Positions 29,230-52,576 of a DNA stretch of 64,000 nt are shown one piece after another (position 1 is the first letter of the stretch; each line of letters begins with the position of its first letter). Under the pieces are notes generated by a model that was not told the DNA's origin, ran no database searches, and saw only the letters and a list, made by a program, of their open reading frames with translations. Position numbers and translations under genes: made by a program. The DNA lies in sequence record NZ_CP092205.1; one strand, given 5' to 3'. The DNA is from a plasmid.

Positions 29230-29817
29230 TGAATTCAGTTTTTGATTTCTTACTAGGAGGGATTGGAAACCAAGTTCGAATCGGAAAGGGTGGTCCTCAA
29301 ATCAAAGGATCCTCTTCCGGTTTGGATATTCGTCTTCCGGATGATTCCGATTTTGGAACTCTGAGAGTTGCCGCGCCTCAGTTTGGAAACGACGCAGTCA
29401 ATCTAGACTGGATCAAAGGGCAAGTTCTTTCGAATTGGAATACGCCCGTTCAATCTTTAGCGGATCTCAGAGCGATTTCTTCTTTCGATCGAAAAGATAG
29501 ACAGATCAGAGAAGTAGAGGATGAACTTGCATTTTATCAATTCGACTTAGAATCAACTGCCGCGGTACCGGATCCGCACGATGTAACTCGAAGTATTGTC
29601 CCCAATGATATTGTACTACCGAACCCTGGTAGATGGTTAAAAACTACAGCTCGTGTACAACAACATTCCCAACTTCTGGGATTAGCCTCAAGCGACGATC
29701 ATCCACAATATCAATTACGTTCTGAAAAAAACTTAATGAATGGATTTCCCGGACTTTCGTAACCACCCAACTAACCACACCTTCCGCTAATTTCAAAAAT
29801 CTGTTAAAATCCTTTTA

Positions 29818-30105
29818 ATGAAAAAACCGAATATCGATTGGCAAAAAGAGTTTGAAGATTTTTCCAAAAGCGGACTTTCCCAGCCTCAGTATTGTAAAGA
29901 AAAAGGGATTAAATATACGACGTTTCGTTACCATTGGGAGAGACGATTAAAAAAACAGGACAAAGACGGCTTTGTAGAAGTGCCTCACTCAGCATTAAAC
30001 GTTAGCTCTGCTTCAGGGTCTGAATTTTTGACTCTAAAAATAGATTCGTCAGGTAAGGCGCATCTTCAAATGAATCTTCAGTTTAGTCTTGGTATATGGA
30101 GCTAA
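29818..30105 (+). CDS. tnpA: IS66-family accessory protein TnpA (95 aa)
   Basis: First small ORF of the IS66 three-gene unit. Confidence 0.7.
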   Translation: MKKPNIDWQKEFEDFSKSGLSQPQYCKEKGIKYTTFRYHWERRLKKQDKDGFVEVPHSALNVSSASGSEFLTLKIDSSGKAHLQMNLQFSLGIWS

Positions 30106-30443
30106 ACCCGGGTAGCAGAAAAGTGTATTTGAGACCTGGGGTCACAGATTTAAGGAAGTCAATCAATACACTTGCGATCATCGTAGAGGGCAGAATGAAG
30201 AAGGACCCATATTCAGAGAGCCTATTTTTATTCTGCAATCGTAAGAAGGACAAACTGAAAATGCTTTATTGGGACAAGAGTGGATTTTGTCTTTGGCAGA
30301 AGAGATTGGAAGAAAGCAAATTTCCGTGGCCGAACACGGAGGAAGAAGTTCAAAAGATTCCCGTGGAAAGATTTCATTGGCTATTGAACGGAATTGATTT
30401 TTTCAAGGAACACAAGAAACTAAAATATCAGAAAGTAAGCTGA
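30096..30443 (+). CDS. tnpB: IS66-family protein TnpB (115 aa)
   Basis: About 115 aa, overlapping tnpA. Conserved RPGVTDLRKSINTLA-type segment typical of IS66 Orf2. Confidence 0.7.
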   Translation: MELNPGSRKVYLRPGVTDLRKSINTLAIIVEGRMKKDPYSESLFLFCNRKKDKLKMLYWDKSGFCLWQKRLEESKFPWPNTEEEVQKIPVERFHWLLNGIDFFKEHKKLKYQKVS

Positions 30444-30485
30444 AACGATTGACTAAAACTTTGTGTTGATTACAACTTCATCATC

Positions 30486-32147
<1,662 letters not shown>

Positions 32148-33141
32148 TCGCTTACGGACTTTCTAATGATCTTGGAAATCCAGGAATACAGCTAGTTTCA
32201 AATGGTTCGATAGTGAGTGTGATTCGCTCTCTTGCGACGGCCGCAAAATCCTATTTTTTACCCGATAAAAACGGAACGATTGCCTTAGATGATCCGTTCA
32301 TCGGTGCGACTGATACGATCAACGGAGCGAAAGGTTTAGTACCCGTTCCACTCATTGCAGACAGAGAACGTTTCTTATCCGGAGACGGAACGTGGAGAAC
32401 AAATTTTGGATCTCTTAAAAATTCAATACTTCAAAATGGATCTTATACCGCCTCCAAATACGAGCGAGTATTGTGCGATGTCTCGGGAGGTAGTATTTCA
32501 ATTACTCTTCCGCTAAGTCCCGATGACAACGTAGTCGTTGGAATTTTAGACATTTCGAATTTAGCCGGAACTCACACGATCACTGTTTTAAGAAACGGCC
32601 AACTGATCGAAGATCTGCCTGAAGACTGGCAATTAGATTTAGACGGTGGATATTGGGAACTTGCCTACTCCGCTCAAAGAGGAAGCTGGTATTTTCTTTC
32701 CATTCCAGCGTATAACAACGTTTCTCCTTCCAGTGGTTTTATCACGGATTCTCCACTTTTTACCGAAACCTCTCTTTCTCCTTCCGCAAGAGCGGTCAAA
32801 CAATACGCCGACACACAAGATTTAATTGTAATTCAAAGTGTTGCGTTAGTCGGCACCATGCAAGAAGGATCCGGGAATGCACCTGTAGGCACTCTTGTAA
32901 AAAACGCTTGGTTTGAAGGAACAACCGACTCGTCCGGTCTTTGTTCGGTTTCTACAGGTCTCGGAAATAATATTTTATCTGTGATCGCTTCCGTCAGTGA
33001 CGGATCCGGGAAATGGTTTTCCATTTCAACATCGGGAGGTGCGAACACACTCTTTTATAACGATTCAGGTCATGTGTCGTTTCAATTCAGTGGGAATCCA
33101 CTCTTTCAAATGCGCGCGGTAAGATTCAAGGTTGAACACAA

Positions 33142-40518: not shown

Positions 40519-40857
40519 ATGACCCCGCCATTAAAAGCCAAAGACGTTTTGGGCATTCAACCGGATTCGAAGGAAGCCCGTGAATTAGAATCCAAACTAA
40601 AATACTCGATCATAGTCAACAAAAGTGTTTTCAGGAGAAGTAACCAAGCCTTCTGGCTCGGTTTATTTTTCGTCCTTGTCGGTCTGTATATACTTTATAC
40701 CTCACCCGATCAAAAAATATCCGAGGGTTTTGGTGGAGTCAGTGTTCACGGACTCTTTCTTACTTCCGGAATCGTTCTGATGTCCTGGTTTAAGACGGGC
40801 GAAATTTTGAAAGCCGTCGGTGAGTTTATCTCAAAAGCGAGGGGAGGTAATCCATGA
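40519..40857 (+). CDS. holin-like small membrane protein (112 aa, two hydrophobic helices)
   Basis: Hydrophobic segments AFWLGLFFVLVGLYILY and GLFLTSGIVLMSWF. Overlaps the next ORF (ATGA). Confidence 0.3.
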   Translation: MTPPLKAKDVLGIQPDSKEARELESKLKYSIIVNKSVFRRSNQAFWLGLFFVLVGLYILYTSPDQKISEGFGGVSVHGLFLTSGIVLMSWFKTGEILKAVGEFISKARGGNP

Positions 40858-41291
40858 AACTCGCTTTTATTTTTGCTCTTTGTTTCCTACTTTTTACCTT
40901 CTGTTCTTCGCCTCCACAAGAACCGGTTTTCGATTACAAATCTGAAACTCAAAATTTAAAAGAGAGTCAGTTTAAAAGGAAAAAGATTTCGGATCCTGGA
41001 GAAATGGAACAGATCTGCAACGACAACGAAGCCGGTCGAGCGAGAGCTCTTACAGCGTATTTAAAGATGAAAGAAGTTTCCGACTACTGGAAGAAAGTTG
41101 CTGAGGATCGGAAATCTGACGCGGAATTTGGGCGATCGATCAAGAATTGGATCACCGTGTTTTTGATTGGAGGAGCGGTCTCTTTGTTCGCTGGAATATT
41201 TTTATATGTGTCCGGAATCGGCTCCAAAGCAATCGGAGGTATTTCTAAAATACTTTCCTATTTGCCTTCCAAAGCAAATCCTACAAAATAA
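40854..41291 (+). CDS. lipoprotein with C-terminal TM helix (spanin-like), 145 aa
   Basis: Signal MKLAFIFALCFLLFTFCSS with lipobox-like Cys. C-terminal hydrophobic helix WITVFLIGGAVSLFAGIFLYV. Confidence 0.3.
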   Translation: MKLAFIFALCFLLFTFCSSPPQEPVFDYKSETQNLKESQFKRKKISDPGEMEQICNDNEAGRARALTAYLKMKEVSDYWKKVAEDRKSDAEFGRSIKNWITVFLIGGAVSLFAGIFLYVSGIGSKAIGGISKILSYLPSKANPTK

Positions 41292-41321: not shown

Positions 41322-41349
41322 AGACCCTGAAAAAAGGGTCTTTTTTTAT
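41322..41349 (+). terminator. rho-independent terminator closing the phage-like late/lysis operon
   Basis: agaccc-tgaaaaaa-gggtct hairpin followed by tttttttatt, 30 nt after the stop of 40854..41291. Confidence 0.6.
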
Positions 41350-42449
41350 TGATCGTAAATATAATTATTCTAATATTGCTATTTCATGCTGGAGCAATTT
41401 TATTGCTCAAGAGATATTATATGACAATTTTTAAAGCAATAAAATTTTCCCAGAATGGTATCGATTTATTTTCATTTATAGCCACTTCAAAATTCATTTA
41501 TGAAAATTTTGAAGTTTCAAAAAGAGTTAAAGACAAAGAACAGGGATATCAGAGATCTTTTTCAAGCACTCGCATTAAAGAGCTATCAAAACATATAACC
41601 AAAGATGCAAATATTATCCCGAATTCAATTTTGGTAAATATTGACTCTGGATTCTTAAATTATAACGAAAATAAAAATGAATTAGAACTTCCTGATTCAA
41701 CTTCTCTAGGATTAATTATTGATGGCCAACATCGGGTAAAAGGAGCATTTGAAGGTAATCAAGATTTTCTATTACCTGTGATTGCTACGGTAGGCCTAAG
41801 TACAAAAGAACAAGCCAAGCTTTTCGTCACAATAAATAAAACTCAAAAAGGAGTCCCTGTTTCATTATATTTAGACCTACTTAACCTAACTGAGGGTGAA
41901 ATAGAGAACTTCGATGACGAGTCAGTCCCTACCGAAAGAAGAGCTGCTGAAATTGCTAGGCGATTAAACGAAGACGAGGAAAGTCCATTGGTAGACCTAA
42001 TTCGTATGACAGGTGAACCGGGGAGAGGGATTGCTTTGAATGAATTTGTAAATAGGTCAAAATATTTACTCGATTCAAGAAAGGGAAAGTTAATTGATTT
42101 TGGATTTGAACAACAATATTTAATTTTCAAAGTTTATTTTCGAGCTTGGAAAGCTGTATTCATCGATCAGTGGAAAGATGAAAGCTCGCAAATTCTTAAA
42201 CAAACTTCTTTTAGTGGCTTATTATTAGCCCTATATGATATATTTCAACTAACGATGCAATACTATAAATTATTCAACACGGATAATTTAATAAAACTTT
42301 TGAACAATATCGCTGATTTTAAATTTTCATCCGACAACATTATTTCAGGTGGTATAAAAGCCCAAGAAAATGTAGCGACTACATTAATAAACAAATTAAA
42401 GAGCCAACTTCGCGAGACAAATAATAATATCAACCTAATCGAGGAATAA
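41349..42449 (+). CDS. DGQHR-motif (DndB-like, ParB-fold) protein (366 aa from TTG at 41349; 342 aa if ATG at 41421 is used)
   Basis: Exact signature LGLIIDGQHRVKGAF. Very AT-rich gene. The stop is followed 1 nt later by the next start. Confidence 0.6.
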   Translation: MIVNIIILILLFHAGAILLLKRYYMTIFKAIKFSQNGIDLFSFIATSKFIYENFEVSKRVKDKEQGYQRSFSSTRIKELSKHITKDANIIPNSILVNIDSGFLNYNENKNELELPDSTSLGLIIDGQHRVKGAFEGNQDFLLPVIATVGLSTKEQAKLFVTINKTQKGVPVSLYLDLLNLTEGEIENFDDESVPTERRAAEIARRLNEDEESPLVDLIRMTGEPGRGIALNEFVNRSKYLLDSRKGKLIDFGFEQQYLIFKVYFRAWKAVFIDQWKDESSQILKQTSFSGLLLALYDIFQLTMQYYKLFNTDNLIKLLNNIADFKFSSDNIISGGIKAQENVATTLINKLKSQLRETNNNINLIEE

Positions 42450-42450
42450 A

Positions 42451-43350
42451 ATGCAACTCTGGGAAATTGCATTAGCGTTCAATAAATGTACAGGCGACGA
42501 AATTAAGTCCTTCAAAAATTATTTTCATGATTTATATTTATCAAATAGCGAATTAGACAATGGGGTAGTAGTAAAAGGATCATATAATTTTATACTATCC
42601 GATGTCGAAAAATTAATCACGAAAATTATTTCTAATTTAATATCCTCCTTTCTTCTAAATAAAGAAGGCATGATAAGTTGGGGATATGTAACAGCCTATT
42701 ACGCCAACTATTTTTCGTTCCAAGCTCTCAACAGGCTTCATCTAAATTTTATTTCATATTCTGAGTCTCTATATTCTTGCACATTCATAAATTATATTAA
42801 TAATGAACTTTTGGTCAAAAAGTCTGATACAAGCAAAACACATATTAGAGAATATCAACTCTACGCCGAAAAAAGAAACAAAATGTCATTGGAATCGAGT
42901 CCTGATCGACTTTGGAGTATTGCCAATTCAAGATTTACTTTCGGAGACGAAGTTAACCTAAGAAATGAAATAAATTACTCAATTTCACAAGATAATTTTT
43001 CTGAATTTTTAATGACGAAAACCGAATTTGACCAATTAAAATCTCATTATAAGAATTCTCCATTCATAAAACCATTAGATCTTGATAAAGAATTTAGATA
43101 CTCATACGAATCCATGAAATATGGACTTAGCAGGTTACGTGTAATTATGTACATCCTAAATAAAATTGCGAATGAAAGCAATCTCTACTCAAGTTATTAT
43201 ATTCGAAGAAACAATCATAGACTAAGAAGCATTGAAGAAAACTTCAAGAACGAACTCCCAATGTGGATGGTTCAATACTTTAATGAAATTTTAATTTTTC
43301 TCGAAATGGATAAAGAGGAAAAGATCCTTCCCTCCGAAGTTAAAAACTGA
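42451..43350 (+). CDS. hypothetical protein (299 aa), translationally coupled partner of the DGQHR protein
   Basis: Start 1 nt after the upstream stop codon. Tyr/Asn/Ser-rich, no recognisable motif. Confidence 0.4.
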   Translation: MQLWEIALAFNKCTGDEIKSFKNYFHDLYLSNSELDNGVVVKGSYNFILSDVEKLITKIISNLISSFLLNKEGMISWGYVTAYYANYFSFQALNRLHLNFISYSESLYSCTFINYINNELLVKKSDTSKTHIREYQLYAEKRNKMSLESSPDRLWSIANSRFTFGDEVNLRNEINYSISQDNFSEFLMTKTEFDQLKSHYKNSPFIKPLDLDKEFRYSYESMKYGLSRLRVIMYILNKIANESNLYSSYYIRRNNHRLRSIEENFKNELPMWMVQYFNEILIFLEMDKEEKILPSEVKN

Positions 43351-43627
43351 TTCACTTTTCGATTTTCAAATACAAGTTTCTTTTTTAAAGTTGTTTGTCA
43401 CAGACTCAATCGGCAGGGCGAAGTTATGGCTATTTGTCCTTGAGAATTTTCTATTTAGCTCAAACTGCCGCCACTTGCAGATAGCGAAATAGGCTTCTCG
43501 ACGTTTGCGATCCTGAAGCGCTTCCGCGCGAAGTGACAAAGCAAATGTGCCAAAGGGCCAAGCGAGAGTCGCGGAACGATCTCGAAGCGCCGCGAGAAGC
43601 CGCGGTTAGGCGATGGAAGCGCATTTA

Positions 43628-46710: not shown

Positions 46711-46920
46711 CTATTTTTTACTTAGAATGTCTGAGTCTCGAAGATCTTGCTCCGTGAGGCCTGTGATTTCCAGGATAGTCTTTAGATCGATCCCTTTTTG
46801 AAGCATTTTACCGGCTGTTTCTAGTTTCCCTTTTTCAATACCCTTCTCGATACCCTGGCGCATCCCTTCAGAAATGAGCCTTTCCGCGGTTGTCATCGTC
46901 AATTCCTCATATTGTTCCAA
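46711..46920 (-). pseudogene. tandemly duplicated 3' fragment of the Rpn/YhgA-like gene (69-aa ORF)
   Basis: [60 protein letters not shown] aligns almost residue-for-residue with the C-terminus of 46933..47895. Confidence 0.45.
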
Positions 46921-46932
46921 TTTAGATCTGCT

Positions 46933-47895
46933 TTAGAGAAATCCATTTTCCTTGAGGGTCTTTTCGGTAAGGCCTGTGATTTCCAGGATAGTCTTTAGAT
47001 CGATCCCTTTCTTTAGCATCTTACCGGCATCTTCCAGTTTCCCTTTTTCAATACCTTTTTCAATGCCCTTCTCGATACCTTGCTCGATACCCTTCTCGAT
47101 ACCTTGTTGTATCCCTTCCGAAATGAGTCTTTCCGCGGTTGTCATCGTCAATTCCTCATATTGTTCCAATTTAGATCGTTGAAGGACTCCCTTCAATTCC
47201 GATGGCTTCAAATCTCGAACCCAGTAAATATACAATAACAGTTTCCGTAAGATTGCAACCCTTTTCGATTCTTCCTCGACTCCAAGTAATAGGGAAAATA
47301 ACCCCGGTAAGTGAGAAATGAGTTCCAAATCCCCTTCCCGGATTTTTTGAACCACTCCCAGAGTCACTTGAAACGTGATACTTTCCAACTTCTCCTTCAA
47401 TTCTATTCCTTTCAAATCGAACAAGTCGATCCTAAAATCCGGAATAAAGTCCTTGAGAATTTCCGTTTCTTGTTTCGTTAGAATGAATTGTTCCAAAAAT
47501 CGATCTCCCAATTTCCATTCCTTTTCTCCGTGATAGAATACGAACGGAATGACTACGGAAAGAGGCTCTCCATTCCTTTGTTGGTTTCGATAGATTTCTG
47601 TGAGATATCCGAGTAGTTGGATGTAGATGCTATTTTCTAAATAACTTTTGTGTTCGAAGAGTAAATACACGTTGGTCCGATTTCCGGACCTGAGCGGGAT
47701 TTGGAACAGTAGATCGGTTTGTTCTTGTTTTAATTCTTCGCTTACAAAACTCGATTCGGACAATTCTAAGTTTTCCAAGTCAAGTAGTTCTACCACTTCC
47801 CGCGGGAGTGTGTTTTTGAAGAAAGTGGCTGCCTCTTTTTTGTCTTGAAATGTTTCTCGGATCAATCGATCGTGCGGATTGTTCACTTCGGTCAT
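46933..47895 (-). CDS. Rpn/YhgA-like recombination-promoting nuclease / putative transposase (PD-(D/E)XK family), 320 aa
   Basis: N-terminal core with [10 protein letters not shown]-type segment. C-terminal [23 protein letters not shown] module characteristic of the Rpn (transposase_31) family. In-frame GIEK(Q)G tandem repeat. Confidence 0.55.
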
Positions 47896-51940: not shown

Positions 51941-52576
51941 ATAACGTGAGTTTCGGCCTAAGAAAGTTTGGGCGAATCGCTCGCGACCGCGCTTTAACTC
52001 AATGTTGCTGCCTACGGTCGCAACATATAATTCGTTTTCGCATTTTGTTATACCGAATTCACGTTAATTTATACGAGACTCAGGTTACGAAAGTAATTAT
52101 CAAAGTTCGCCATAAACAGATGTTGAAGTAAATTGATTGAAATCAAATAATTCGGAAGACTTATTAGCACCTGGAATTCCTGTTGAAGTATCGACACGAT
52201 CAAATCCAGATGCTATAAAAATTTTCGATCCATTAACTAAATTAGCCGTATGTCCCGATCTCTTCGTTTGCATCTGTCCAGACCCTACAACTGTCATACT
52301 TCCTGTATCATATAACTCACAAGAAGAAAGAATAGGAGATCCCGTAAGAATTTGATTCCCCCCACATAATATAATTCTATTTGAGGCAGTAGAGACGGCA
52401 GTATGCCCTACCCTAAACTCACTTATATTTCCTACCGAAGAAAATGTATTCAAACCTGAATCATATAATTCCACTACTTTCGTATTCGATACGAAAGGCG
52501 GAGTTGTTACTTTATAAGTAACCACCCAACTAACCACACCTTCCGCTAATTTCAAAAATCTGTTAAAATCCTTTTA

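Follow-up and report, generated by a model that had tools for sequence, protein, structure and literature searches.

The window analysed here, the whole of a 64,000 nt stretch of a Leptospira weilii plasmid (NZ_CP092205.1), holds at 41349-43350 two closely spaced genes, the first for a protein with the DGQHR signature and the second for a protein of 299 aa. A preliminary description, made from the sequence alone, proposed them as an undescribed defence module, and the question is whether the two genes belong together, what their products resemble and whether any established system accounts for them. The two genes, their motifs and the terminator described below all lie on the plus strand (+).

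The program-made ORF of the first gene, 41349..42449, opens with a TTG at 41349 and contains the signature LGLIIDGQHRVKGAF, as described before; these coordinates hold for the ORF, but not for the start of the gene. The TTG abuts the upstream terminator, the long ORF is matched by HMMs only from residues 28-30 on, homologues have a length of about 342 aa and the database copy of the L. weilii protein has 342 aa, hence the true start is almost certainly ATG 41421 and not TTG 41349, giving a DGQHR-domain gene at 41421..42449 with a product of 342 aa. The family assignment, for which the signature had been the basis, is confirmed by a strong profile match, as the DGQHR domain model TIGR03187 scores 144.1 bits against a curated cutoff of 58.85 and is covered over profile positions 1-275 of 276. 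The Pfam DndB model PF14072 also passes (49.4 vs 29.1), but it is covered over positions 1-160 of 338. The DndB equivalog model TIGR03233 gave no match, the PADLOC DndB model reached 16.1 bits (E 0.0011), and the protein fails the equivalog cutoffs both of NF041060 (DpdB; 86.5 bits vs 300) and of TIGR04172 (DNA phosphorothioation-associated DGQHR protein 1, DGQHR_dnd_1; 75.9 bits vs 450). Neither DUF262 nor DUF1524 matched this protein or its partner.

The first protein is a DGQHR-family member with the ParB/sulfiredoxin (Srx) fold, in which a ParB/Srx-fold nucleotide-binding domain at the N-terminus is followed by a helical domain at the C-terminus. With the DGQHR/DndB family (TIGR03187, PF14072) it has in common the domain, the fold and the GYQR/DGQHR/FxxxN motifs. 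The residues D101-G-Q-H-R105 (codons 41721..41735) are the equivalent of ParB/Srx box II and a predicted NTP-phosphate-binding loop, the roles of the motifs in DGQHR-type ParB folds being taken from PMC4619093. Among 33 diverse homologues D101 and Q103 are invariant, as are G42-Y-Q-R45, F135 and N139, while G102, H104 and R105 are conserved in at least 90 %. A search by sequence found no solved structure of the DGQHR family. For its relatives, DndB is an ATP-modulated DNA binder (PMC4507180), DpdB is an ATPase (PMC12839542) and a DndB-like ParB-fold protein has been shown biochemically to bind ATP and GTP (PMC12704722).

The two genes are joined by a tight junction at 42441..42453, in which GAGGA (42441-42445) precedes the stop codon TAA (42447-42449), followed by a single A and the ATG of the partner (42451-42453). 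The partner gene, 42451..43350, encodes 299 aa rich in Ser (11 %), Asn (10 %) and Tyr (7 %), so both the spacing and the composition previously reported are correct. It had further been held to have no recognisable motif and no known fold, and this does not stand, as the protein is HEPN-like by fold as well as by family profile. It has the HEPN four-helix core with a beta-sheet insert after helix 2. Pfam PF05168 (HEPN) matches 16 of 36 family members (best E 1.5e-5) and 6 of 35 in another set; the Leptospira partner alone has no Pfam HEPN match, and no Pfam HEPN family other than PF05168 was matched among 71 members. Run against the PDB, the partner-family profile finds HEPN chains only (9xbd, E 0.0017; 9xbc, E 0.0023; 2hsb, E 0.019), and a Foldseek search of the PDB with the partner returned nothing significant, its best sensible match being 2hsb with a probability of 0.60. 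With moderate confidence, we assign the partner to a divergent AF0298/AbiV-like type of HEPN domain.

The catalytic Rx4-6H motif of HEPN domains is absent from the partner, where a Tyr conserved in 99 % stands at the expected His position. In its place the family has the motif R-[N/E]-x-[I/L]-x-Y, in L. weilii R171-N-E-I-N-Y176 (codons 42961..42978), with R171 and Y176 conserved in 99 % and N172 in 81 %. Residues 171-181 are modelled with a pLDDT below 50, hence it is from the form of the motif and its order in the sequence that we infer this stretch to be equivalent to the HEPN motif. A second conserved residue, His131 (codon 42841..42843), lies directly behind the helix-2 insert; among 80 distinct family members 86 % have His at this position and the others Gln, and an independent set of 35 has His throughout. 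This position matches the alternative active-site His of AF0298-like HEPN-T and AbiV (PMC3710099), two groups that likewise lack the His of Rx4-6H while retaining the Arg, and whose second His is supplied by the insert separating helices 2 and 3. The family may have the AF0298-like HEPN-T/AbiV layout, with its Arg kept, its His lost and H131 present in 86-100 % after the insert, the motif region 171-181 being modelled at low confidence. Lacking a canonical Rx4-6H, the partner could also be a non-catalytic binder of nucleic acid.

Further, we wanted to see whether the pair recurs. Of about 185,600 species-representative genomes, 187 contain relatives of the DGQHR gene; they belong to Cyanobacteria, Bacteroidota, Acidobacteriota, Campylobacterota, Proteobacteria, Planctomycetota, Spirochaetota and CPR, and further relatives occur in phages. 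In 80 of 88 independent loci from many phyla the DGQHR homologue is followed directly by the partner, a recurrence that puts the gene pair far beyond chance, and 81 of 83 ORFs downstream of DGQHR homologues are partners. The gap between the two genes is elsewhere mostly -4 to +13 nt. About 30 viral contigs carry the pairing, and 45 were counted as mobile context. Word-seeded searches with the partner gave 8 and then 11 clusters; the family emerged by exhaustive profile search together with loci seeded by the DGQHR gene. The distant partner clades are homologous both by this exhaustive profile search and by hhalign (99.3 %, 89.6 % and 70.9 % vs 0.1 % for the control). One apparent exception to the pairing, L087, was rejected as such, as it is a single ORF in which DGQHR and partner are fused. 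A supposed effector swap in L066 was likewise rejected; the downstream gene resembles an IS21-type transposase, with HTH and integrase-core-like regions recognised by eye, and we therefore read this locus as an insertion.

The two proteins co-vary with r = 0.96 over 2,415 pairs. In loci where a methyltransferase is added to form a triad, r is 0.90, and methyltransferase, DGQHR protein and partner all co-vary. The two genes co-evolve across many phyla and phages. With a mean identity of 0.28, as compared with 0.50 and 0.53 for the other two triad proteins, the partner evolves at about double the rate, a pace often seen in effectors engaged in arms races. In 17 cyanobacterial genomes the pair is found near acnB, a synteny that looks like stable vertical inheritance and not like the typical turnover of a defence island.

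In L. weilii, an intrinsic-terminator-like hairpin (AGACCCTGAAAAAAGGGTCT) followed by a T-run (41322..41348; hairpin 41322-41341) lies directly upstream of the DGQHR ORF, where it closes the preceding block of phage genes and forms the 5' boundary of the island. It had been described as the terminator of a prophage lysis cassette; the terminator-like hairpin and the phage genes are there, but the lysis role is not borne out, as the three genes upstream of the hairpin, which are phage genes shared with LE1-like Leptospira phages, match PHROGs of unknown function. Similarity to these phages ends at about 40850 and the last PHROG-matching gene at 41291. The AT-rich character of the island is confirmed, with a GC content of 0.32 for the DGQHR gene, 0.30 for the partner and 0.28 for the Mrr-like gene, whereas the phage genes are at 0.42 and the window as a whole at 0.40. 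The neighbours named earlier, a Mrr-like gene (Mrr_cat 23.2 bits, cutoff 21), an IS481 transposase and an Rpn nuclease, are all present, but the classic defence-island setting that they were taken to indicate amounts to local context. No other locus has the Mrr-like gene, which was therefore rejected as a third component. The GC-rich spacer at 43351-43627 has no Rfam family and no repeat copies, and its folding is ordinary on both strands (z -0.38 and +0.85); the sole Rfam match, at 41375-41461, is a sub-threshold one to a plant miRNA model. No tRNA gene that could serve as attachment site was found in the window.

The recurrent neighbours in 83 loci are the partner, methyltransferases and DpnII only. 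A DNA methyltransferase, of the N6A/N4C type, lies within 3 kb in 37 of the 80 partner-bearing loci and is absent nearby in the other 43, L. weilii among them. A gene for a DpnII-family endonuclease is present in seven loci, five of which hold a full cassette with two methyltransferases. Methyltransferases or DpnII accompany the relatives L013, L036-L041 and L138; in the 64-kb window, neither the linked methyltransferases nor DpnII have a homologue. Two arrangements can be told apart. In a beta-class methyltransferase clade, the operon runs methyltransferase, DGQHR gene, partner with overlapping genes and no other recognisable nuclease, and in the Dam-like clades the cassette has its own DpnII-family endonuclease. 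The view of a stand-alone DGQHR protein with an effector hence fits the L. weilii copy, which is without a methyltransferase, but not the family, given the 37 methyltransferase-linked and seven DpnII-linked loci. DGQHR proteins of 800 aa beside Dam-like methyltransferases were considered as carriers of the partner domain and rejected (hhalign probability 0.15 %); Pfam finds nothing but the DndB core in two of three of them, and in the third a sub-threshold match to a Card1-like nuclease. Other conflict genes occur in some surroundings of the pair. L091 has DISARM-like, NERD-helicase and GmrSD genes alongside, L090 is an Acinetobacter prophage whose triad adjoins cI, L007 and L002 have toxin-antitoxin neighbours, and a GmrSD_N gene adjoins the closest relative of the pair.

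DndB has reportedly been described by Makarova et al. in 2013 as a ParB-like domain with a C-terminal HEPN fusion. Unlike DndB and DpdB, the DGQHR protein fails every equivalog model and is not accompanied by dnd or dpd genes; it is obligately paired with a HEPN protein and facultatively joined by N6A/N4C methyltransferases or a DpnII cassette. In PADLOC-DB v2.0.0 the DGQHR protein matches the DpdB and DndB models only, and the partner with 35 of its relatives matches nothing. With the partner lacking a PADLOC v2 model, the pair does not count as an established system, and neither Pfam, NCBIfam nor PADLOC lists the module. The earlier statement that it matches no named defence system is correct in this respect, but the type of operon is on record, since one line of Table 1 in Anantharaman et al. 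2013 (PMC3710099) lists an operon of HEPN, ParB nuclease and DNA methylase as a predicted conflict system, and the pair is therefore not without precedent. The HEPN family of that line, MAE_28990, follows the same operon logic, which is found in our family (a methyltransferase within 3 kb in 37/80) and not at the Leptospira locus. It is listed with a conserved Rx4-6H and classed apart from the PF05168 HEPN-T clade (PMC3710099), whereas the partner family has R-x4-Y with the alternative His and finds only PF05168/AF0298-type HEPN in its Pfam and PDB sequence matches. Going by this table description and the motif, the partner family possibly differs from MAE_28990, on which we found nothing published beyond the one table line in PMC3710099.

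AF0298-like HEPN-T (PDB 2hsb) is the best structural and sequence-profile match of the partner. The partner is, however, more than twice as long (about 300 vs about 125 aa); it carries an insert of three beta strands as well as additional helices, an invariant Tyr follows the Arg at a distance of five residues, and its mate is a ParB-fold protein and not a minimal nucleotidyltransferase. The same separates the pair from MNT-HepT, as it has no nucleotidyltransferase mate, the His of RX4HXY is absent and the upstream protein is a ParB-fold NTPase of DNA-binding type. AMPylation of HepT by MNT is also the analogy from which a modification of tyrosine by a ParB-fold enzyme may be proposed. GmrSD, BrxU and SspE (DUF262 + DUF1524 HNH, Type IV) likewise combine a ParB-fold NTPase sensor of DGQ(Q/H)R type with a nuclease-type effector, occur in defence islands and are at times split into two genes (PMC4619093). 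Here, the effector is HEPN and not HNH, it is a separate polypeptide and, unlike Type IV systems, the pair is often linked to a methyltransferase. PrrC-EcoprrI also has a HEPN effector in or beside a restriction-modification cassette together with an NTP-binding regulator, and HEPN RNases in such operons have been proposed as a second-line suicide defence (PMC3710099). In contrast to PrrC, whose ABC-type NTPase is fused, the regulator of the pair is a separate protein with the ParB/Srx fold; the cassettes that host the pair resemble Type II (DpnII or beta-class methyltransferase) and not Type I, and many copies stand alone. The L. weilii locus is itself not a DpnII-type Type II restriction-modification system, having no cognate methyltransferase or endonuclease in the window.

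Taken as one operon, the pair is probably the sensor-effector module of a widespread and uncharacterised conflict (anti-phage) system. The DGQHR protein would bind DNA and NTP, as do DndB, DpdB and the DUF262 of GmrSD/SspE/BrxU, and may act as a switch reporting the status of DNA, most plausibly the methylation state or the integrity of an associated restriction-modification system. This switch would control the HEPN partner as a toxic effector, most likely an RNase acting via His131/Arg171(/Tyr176), and the outcome would be growth arrest or abortive infection by the logic of PrrC/EcoprrI. The L. weilii copy, whose low-GC island borders on an LE1-like prophage region, would have been acquired horizontally, and being without a methyltransferase it must use methylation in trans or respond to another trigger. 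One could go further and speculate that the DGQHR protein reads DNA methylation from an adjacent methyltransferase or, in genomes such as those of cyanobacteria and this Leptospira, from one acting in trans, and licenses a non-canonical HEPN nuclease with an insert-His/Arg/Tyr site, possibly via NTP-dependent modification of the Tyr, which would make a new methylation-coupled class of abortive infection. We find this doubtful as a whole, and a reading of methylation is not general unless it works in trans, because 43 of the 80 loci lack a nearby methyltransferase.

Among other explanations, the one which survives best, though we hold it unlikely, is that the pair is a DNA-cleaving restriction component, with a ParB-fold nickase or nuclease and a HEPN-fold subunit for DNA binding or specificity, the Leptospira copy then being an orphan with its methyltransferase elsewhere or modification-dependent (Type IV-like). 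The overlapping operons of the beta-class clade, with no other recognisable nuclease, would be explained in this way, as would the co-variation of all three triad proteins, and, as stated in PMC10853773 and PMC12839542, DNA nicking is possible for ParB/Srx-fold proteins. The prophage in the window, further, encodes a polyvalent protein of 1,584 aa with a methyltransferase-domain match just below threshold. The Dam-like clades argue the other way, since their cassette already has a DpnII-family endonuclease and the pair is there an accessory and not the restriction enzyme. The lack of a nearby methyltransferase in 43 loci would be lethal with a classical restriction enzyme, and the known roles of HEPN domains are those of an RNase or RNA binder, not of a DNase (PMC3710099).

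That the pair instead forms a toxin-antitoxin-like addiction module without phage sensing, in which a HEPN toxin is kept in check by the DGQHR protein, through binding or NTP-dependent modification of Tyr176, and the mobile element is stabilised, seems to us quite improbable. A highly conserved NTPase of DNA-binding type with 342 aa is unlike the small and labile antitoxins, the recurrent linkage to methyltransferases and endonucleases would be left unexplained, and the chromosomal synteny in cyanobacteria speaks against pure addiction.

The DGQHR protein could in principle be the DndB- or DpdB-type part of a phosphorothioation or 7-deazaguanine system whose other genes lie elsewhere in the genome, of which 64 kb were inspected, and it does match Pfam DndB and the PADLOC/NCBIfam DpdB models. 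The scores, however, lie far under the equivalog cutoffs of DpdB and DGQHR_dnd_1. Neither the large ORFs of the window nor any of the 83 loci include genes of the dnd, ssp or dpd kind, and a DndC/D/E, Ssp or DpdA-like cluster is likewise missing from the loci. This explanation is therefore very improbable, in agreement with the preliminary description, which had placed the pair outside the dnd/ssp type. Least credible of all, and close to negligible, is a ParB-type partition or regulatory protein of an LE1-like plasmid-prophage with an unrelated passenger as partner, for although the adjacent genes are related to LE1-like phages and the protein has a weak PHROG match to 'ParB-like partition protein' (E 1e-6), the pair is present in 0 of 5 deposited LE1-like phages, no ParA gene is adjacent, and the many chromosomal, non-phage contexts always include the HEPN partner.

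The DGQHR gene does not lack profile matches, the 83 loci are free of dnd, ssp and dpd genes, and across phyla DGQHR homologues keep the partner as their next gene downstream; as none of the findings that were to speak against it was made, the proposal of a conserved and undescribed candidate defence pair stands. If the sensor-effector reading is confirmed, a widespread defence module would be added to the catalogue, and the large 'orphan' part of the DGQHR/DndB family, up to now read via phosphorothioation and deazaguanine systems only, would be given a function. Confirmation would also provide a tractable example of a HEPN domain without canonical Rx4-6H and reveal in what way a ParB-fold NTP-switch connects to restriction-modification cassettes such as DpnII. 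In Leptospira, the pair is a candidate determinant of resistance to phages and plasmids, carried on mobile DNA.

Both reading frames of the preliminary description are present in the window where it had placed them. The single base reported between them was also confirmed, with the DGQHR stop codon at 42447-42449, the ATG of the 299-aa partner gene (42451-43350) following after one nucleotide, and a GAGGA at 42441-42445 ahead of that ATG. The proposed DGQHR start at TTG 41349 can be read as a mechanical ORF, but the true gene is most likely 41421-42449 (342 aa), since the TTG abuts a terminator-like hairpin (41322-41341) and the T-run after it, HMM matches to the long ORF begin only at residues 28-30, and both the homologues (about 342 aa) and a database copy of the same protein, labelled Leptospira weilii (342 aa), have the shorter length. 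The low-GC island stands as well, with a GC content of 0.32 for the DGQHR gene and 0.30 for the partner versus 0.42 for the upstream phage genes; the convergent Mrr-like gene has 0.28.

The gene pairing recurs in other genomes, a co-occurrence that the preliminary description had proposed to test. Scanning a single genome for each species gave 187 DGQHR relatives, and the best 80 of the 187 loci were kept. Counting only loci where a downstream ORF could be called, a partner-family ORF lies directly downstream of the DGQHR gene in 81 of 83, mostly with gaps of -4 to +13 nt, and an HMM tally finds the pair in 80 of 88 loci. The two loci scored as partner-less in the former count are L087 and L066 (L numbers denote loci carrying DGQHR relatives). 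In L087 a single 499-aa ORF (10334-11833) joins the C-terminal part of DGQHR to the partner, which may be a fusion that occurs naturally or one created by assembly; in L066 the downstream gene resembles an IS21-type transposase, read as an insertion rather than an effector swap. The remaining cases in the tallies are contig ends or limits of ORF calling. For L036 (Gracilibacteria), where no partner ORF was called, tblastn gave a partial match to partner residues 47-209 immediately after the DGQHR gene; the missing call may have several causes, an alternative genetic code among them.

Every metagenomic partner homologue has a DndB-family gene directly upstream, and the flanking genes are unrelated from locus to locus. 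The two proteins co-evolve: their Pearson correlation is 0.96 across 2,415 locus pairs, or 0.64 when just the distant pairs are counted, and the partner evolves about twice as fast. An exhaustive profile search with the close partner clade returned 65 representatives (34 at E <= 1e-10), and hhalign scored the distant clades at 99.3 %, 89.6 % and 70.9 % with motifs in register (negative control 0.1 %), hence the distant homology rests on more than iteration.

The DGQHR protein has a ParB/Srx fold and the partner a divergent HEPN fold. Conserved partner positions in 80 distinct sequences are K58, W77, Y83, H131 (86 %), R171 (99 %), N172 (81 %) and Y176 (99 %), and in an independent 35-sequence set the W, Y, H, R and Y are invariant. 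Where HEPN proteins have Rx4-6H, this family has R-[N/E]-x-[I/L]-x-Y, and the conserved His comes directly after the beta insert following helix 2. Anantharaman et al. described this layout in AF0298-like HEPN-T proteins and in AbiV, and proposed an alternative RNase active site for them (PMC3710099). We infer that the two layouts are equivalent from the form of the motif and its order along the sequence; in the structural model the motif region has low confidence.

The pair is further linked to methyltransferase and endonuclease genes. A same-strand DNA methyltransferase lies within 250 nt of the pair in 33 of 83 loci, and one lies within 3 kb in 37 of 80 partner-bearing loci; these are beta-class N6_N4_Mtase (PF01555) or Dam-like D12 enzymes (PF02086). 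In the beta-class clade the methyltransferase gene overlaps the DGQHR gene or directly adjoins it, and the three proteins co-vary. Among the Dam-like clades (Campylobacterota, CPR, some Bacteroidota) the pair forms part of a DpnII-type cassette, in the order Dam-like methyltransferase, DGQHR, partner, DpnII endonuclease and beta-class methyltransferase (L036, L037, L039, L040, L041) or DpnII, DGQHR and partner (L138, L013). One alternative is that the pair itself is a restriction nuclease; these cassettes carry a DpnII endonuclease of their own. The clade nearest the Leptospira pair (cyanobacteria, Leptospira) is mostly without a methyltransferase, and none of the linked types is present in the window. 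In cyanobacteria a housekeeping Dam-like enzyme commonly provides Gm6ATC methylation, which would fit a pair depending on methylation in trans.

A second architecture was seen in IMG/VR contigs (L107-L110, L116, L119, L129), where DGQHR ORFs of about 775-800 aa, with N- and C-terminal extensions of about 250 aa, lie directly beside a Dam-like D12 methyltransferase and have no HEPN partner as a separate gene. At the N-terminus of one of them is a match to Card1-like PD-(D/E)xK, below threshold. These ORFs may represent a further DGQHR system linked to methyltransferases.

Comparison with DndB, DpdB and the DUF262 domains in GmrSD, SspE and BrxU suggests that the DGQHR protein would act as an NTP-dependent switch bound to DNA, reporting either how the DNA is methylated or the condition of the restriction-modification system that accompanies it. 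It would control the HEPN partner, a probable RNase using His131 and Arg171. The outcome might then be abortive infection, as has been proposed for HEPN domains in general where they lie within restriction-modification operons (PMC3710099).

Among relatives of the Leptospira pair on long contigs, the closest (L091, 1-9533) lies in a dense defence island: upstream of it are a DISARM-like set (Eco57I/MmeI-type methyltransferase and DEAD helicase with MZB domain), a NERD-UvrD helicase and GmrSD_N. An Acinetobacter prophage contig holds a methyltransferase, DGQHR and an 'uncharacterised protein' adjoining cI, and among 45 IMG/VR loci the pair occurs in about 30 and the triad with a methyltransferase in 12. 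Toxin-antitoxin genes are neighbours of the pair at some other loci. A less likely reading is that the pair itself is a toxin-antitoxin-like addiction module. In 17 cyanobacterial genomes acnB (aconitase B) lies about 0.1-3 kb from the pair in varying orientation (L010, L012, L014, L017-L019, L021-L025, L028-L033, L137). This suggests either an integration hotspot or a conserved chromosomal position with long vertical retention, and, of the contextual evidence, speaks most strongly against a defence role that is purely mobile. Another, improbable reading makes the pair a dnd or dpd component with its remaining partners encoded elsewhere; neither the pair loci nor the large ORFs of the window yielded any dnd, ssp or dpd gene.

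Upstream of the pair in the window are phage genes (portal, tail fibre, several PHROGs), the final one ending at 41291. DNA similarity to LE1-like Leptospira phages stops near 40850, and the pair is absent from all of the LE1-like phages compared. A role of the pair in prophage partition is improbable. The neighbours named in the preliminary description, Mrr-like (Mrr_cat 23.2 bits, cutoff 21), IS481 and Rpn, keep their assignments, and an adjacent Mrr-like gene was seen in no other locus examined. A 2,397-bp IS66-family element occurs twice in direct orientation (29759-32155 and 52518-54914, 99.96 % identical), flanking a segment of about 20 kb that holds late phage genes, the pair, IS481, Rpn and the Mrr-like gene; this either resembles a composite transposon or reflects recent activity of IS66.

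The spacer between the partner and Mrr-like genes (43351-43627) has a GC content of 0.48 versus about 0.30 on either side. It has no second copy in the window or any fetched locus, no Rfam match and no unusual folding on either strand, and is possibly a remnant of older sequence. Around the Rpn 3' end (46711-47182), repeats of 87-91 % identity (46751-46856 with 46964-47069; 46829-46928 with 47078-47177) and a 69-aa ORF (46711-46920) repeating the Rpn C-terminus suggest a partial tandem duplication. A polyvalent phage protein of 1,584 aa (10242-14996, plus strand) contains an LPD1 domain (72 bits), together with a methyltransferase-domain match, MTS, just below threshold (22.6 bits versus 23); these matches make it a possible DNA-modifying enzyme, encoded on the element that also carries the methyltransferase-less pair. 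Near the window end, an RHS-repeat protein of 1,328 aa (59595-63581, minus strand) is a probable polymorphic toxin.

The preliminary description could match the module to no named defence system, and PADLOC v2 likewise lacks it; it is absent as a system, and the partner as a family, from PADLOC v2, Pfam and NCBIfam, and our literature search found no description of a DGQHR-HEPN module. For the MAE_28990 HEPN family, with a ParB and DNA methylase operon, the published listing gives a conserved Rx4-6H motif and a class apart from PF05168-type HEPN (PMC3710099); going by that listing, our partner family, which matches only PF05168/AF0298, may be a different one. The general theme is thus already anticipated, and we rate the pair among modules of a ParB-type sensor and a nuclease-type effector attached to restriction-modification systems. 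The DGQHR-HEPN family is broad and coherent, a candidate with a predicted function in defence.
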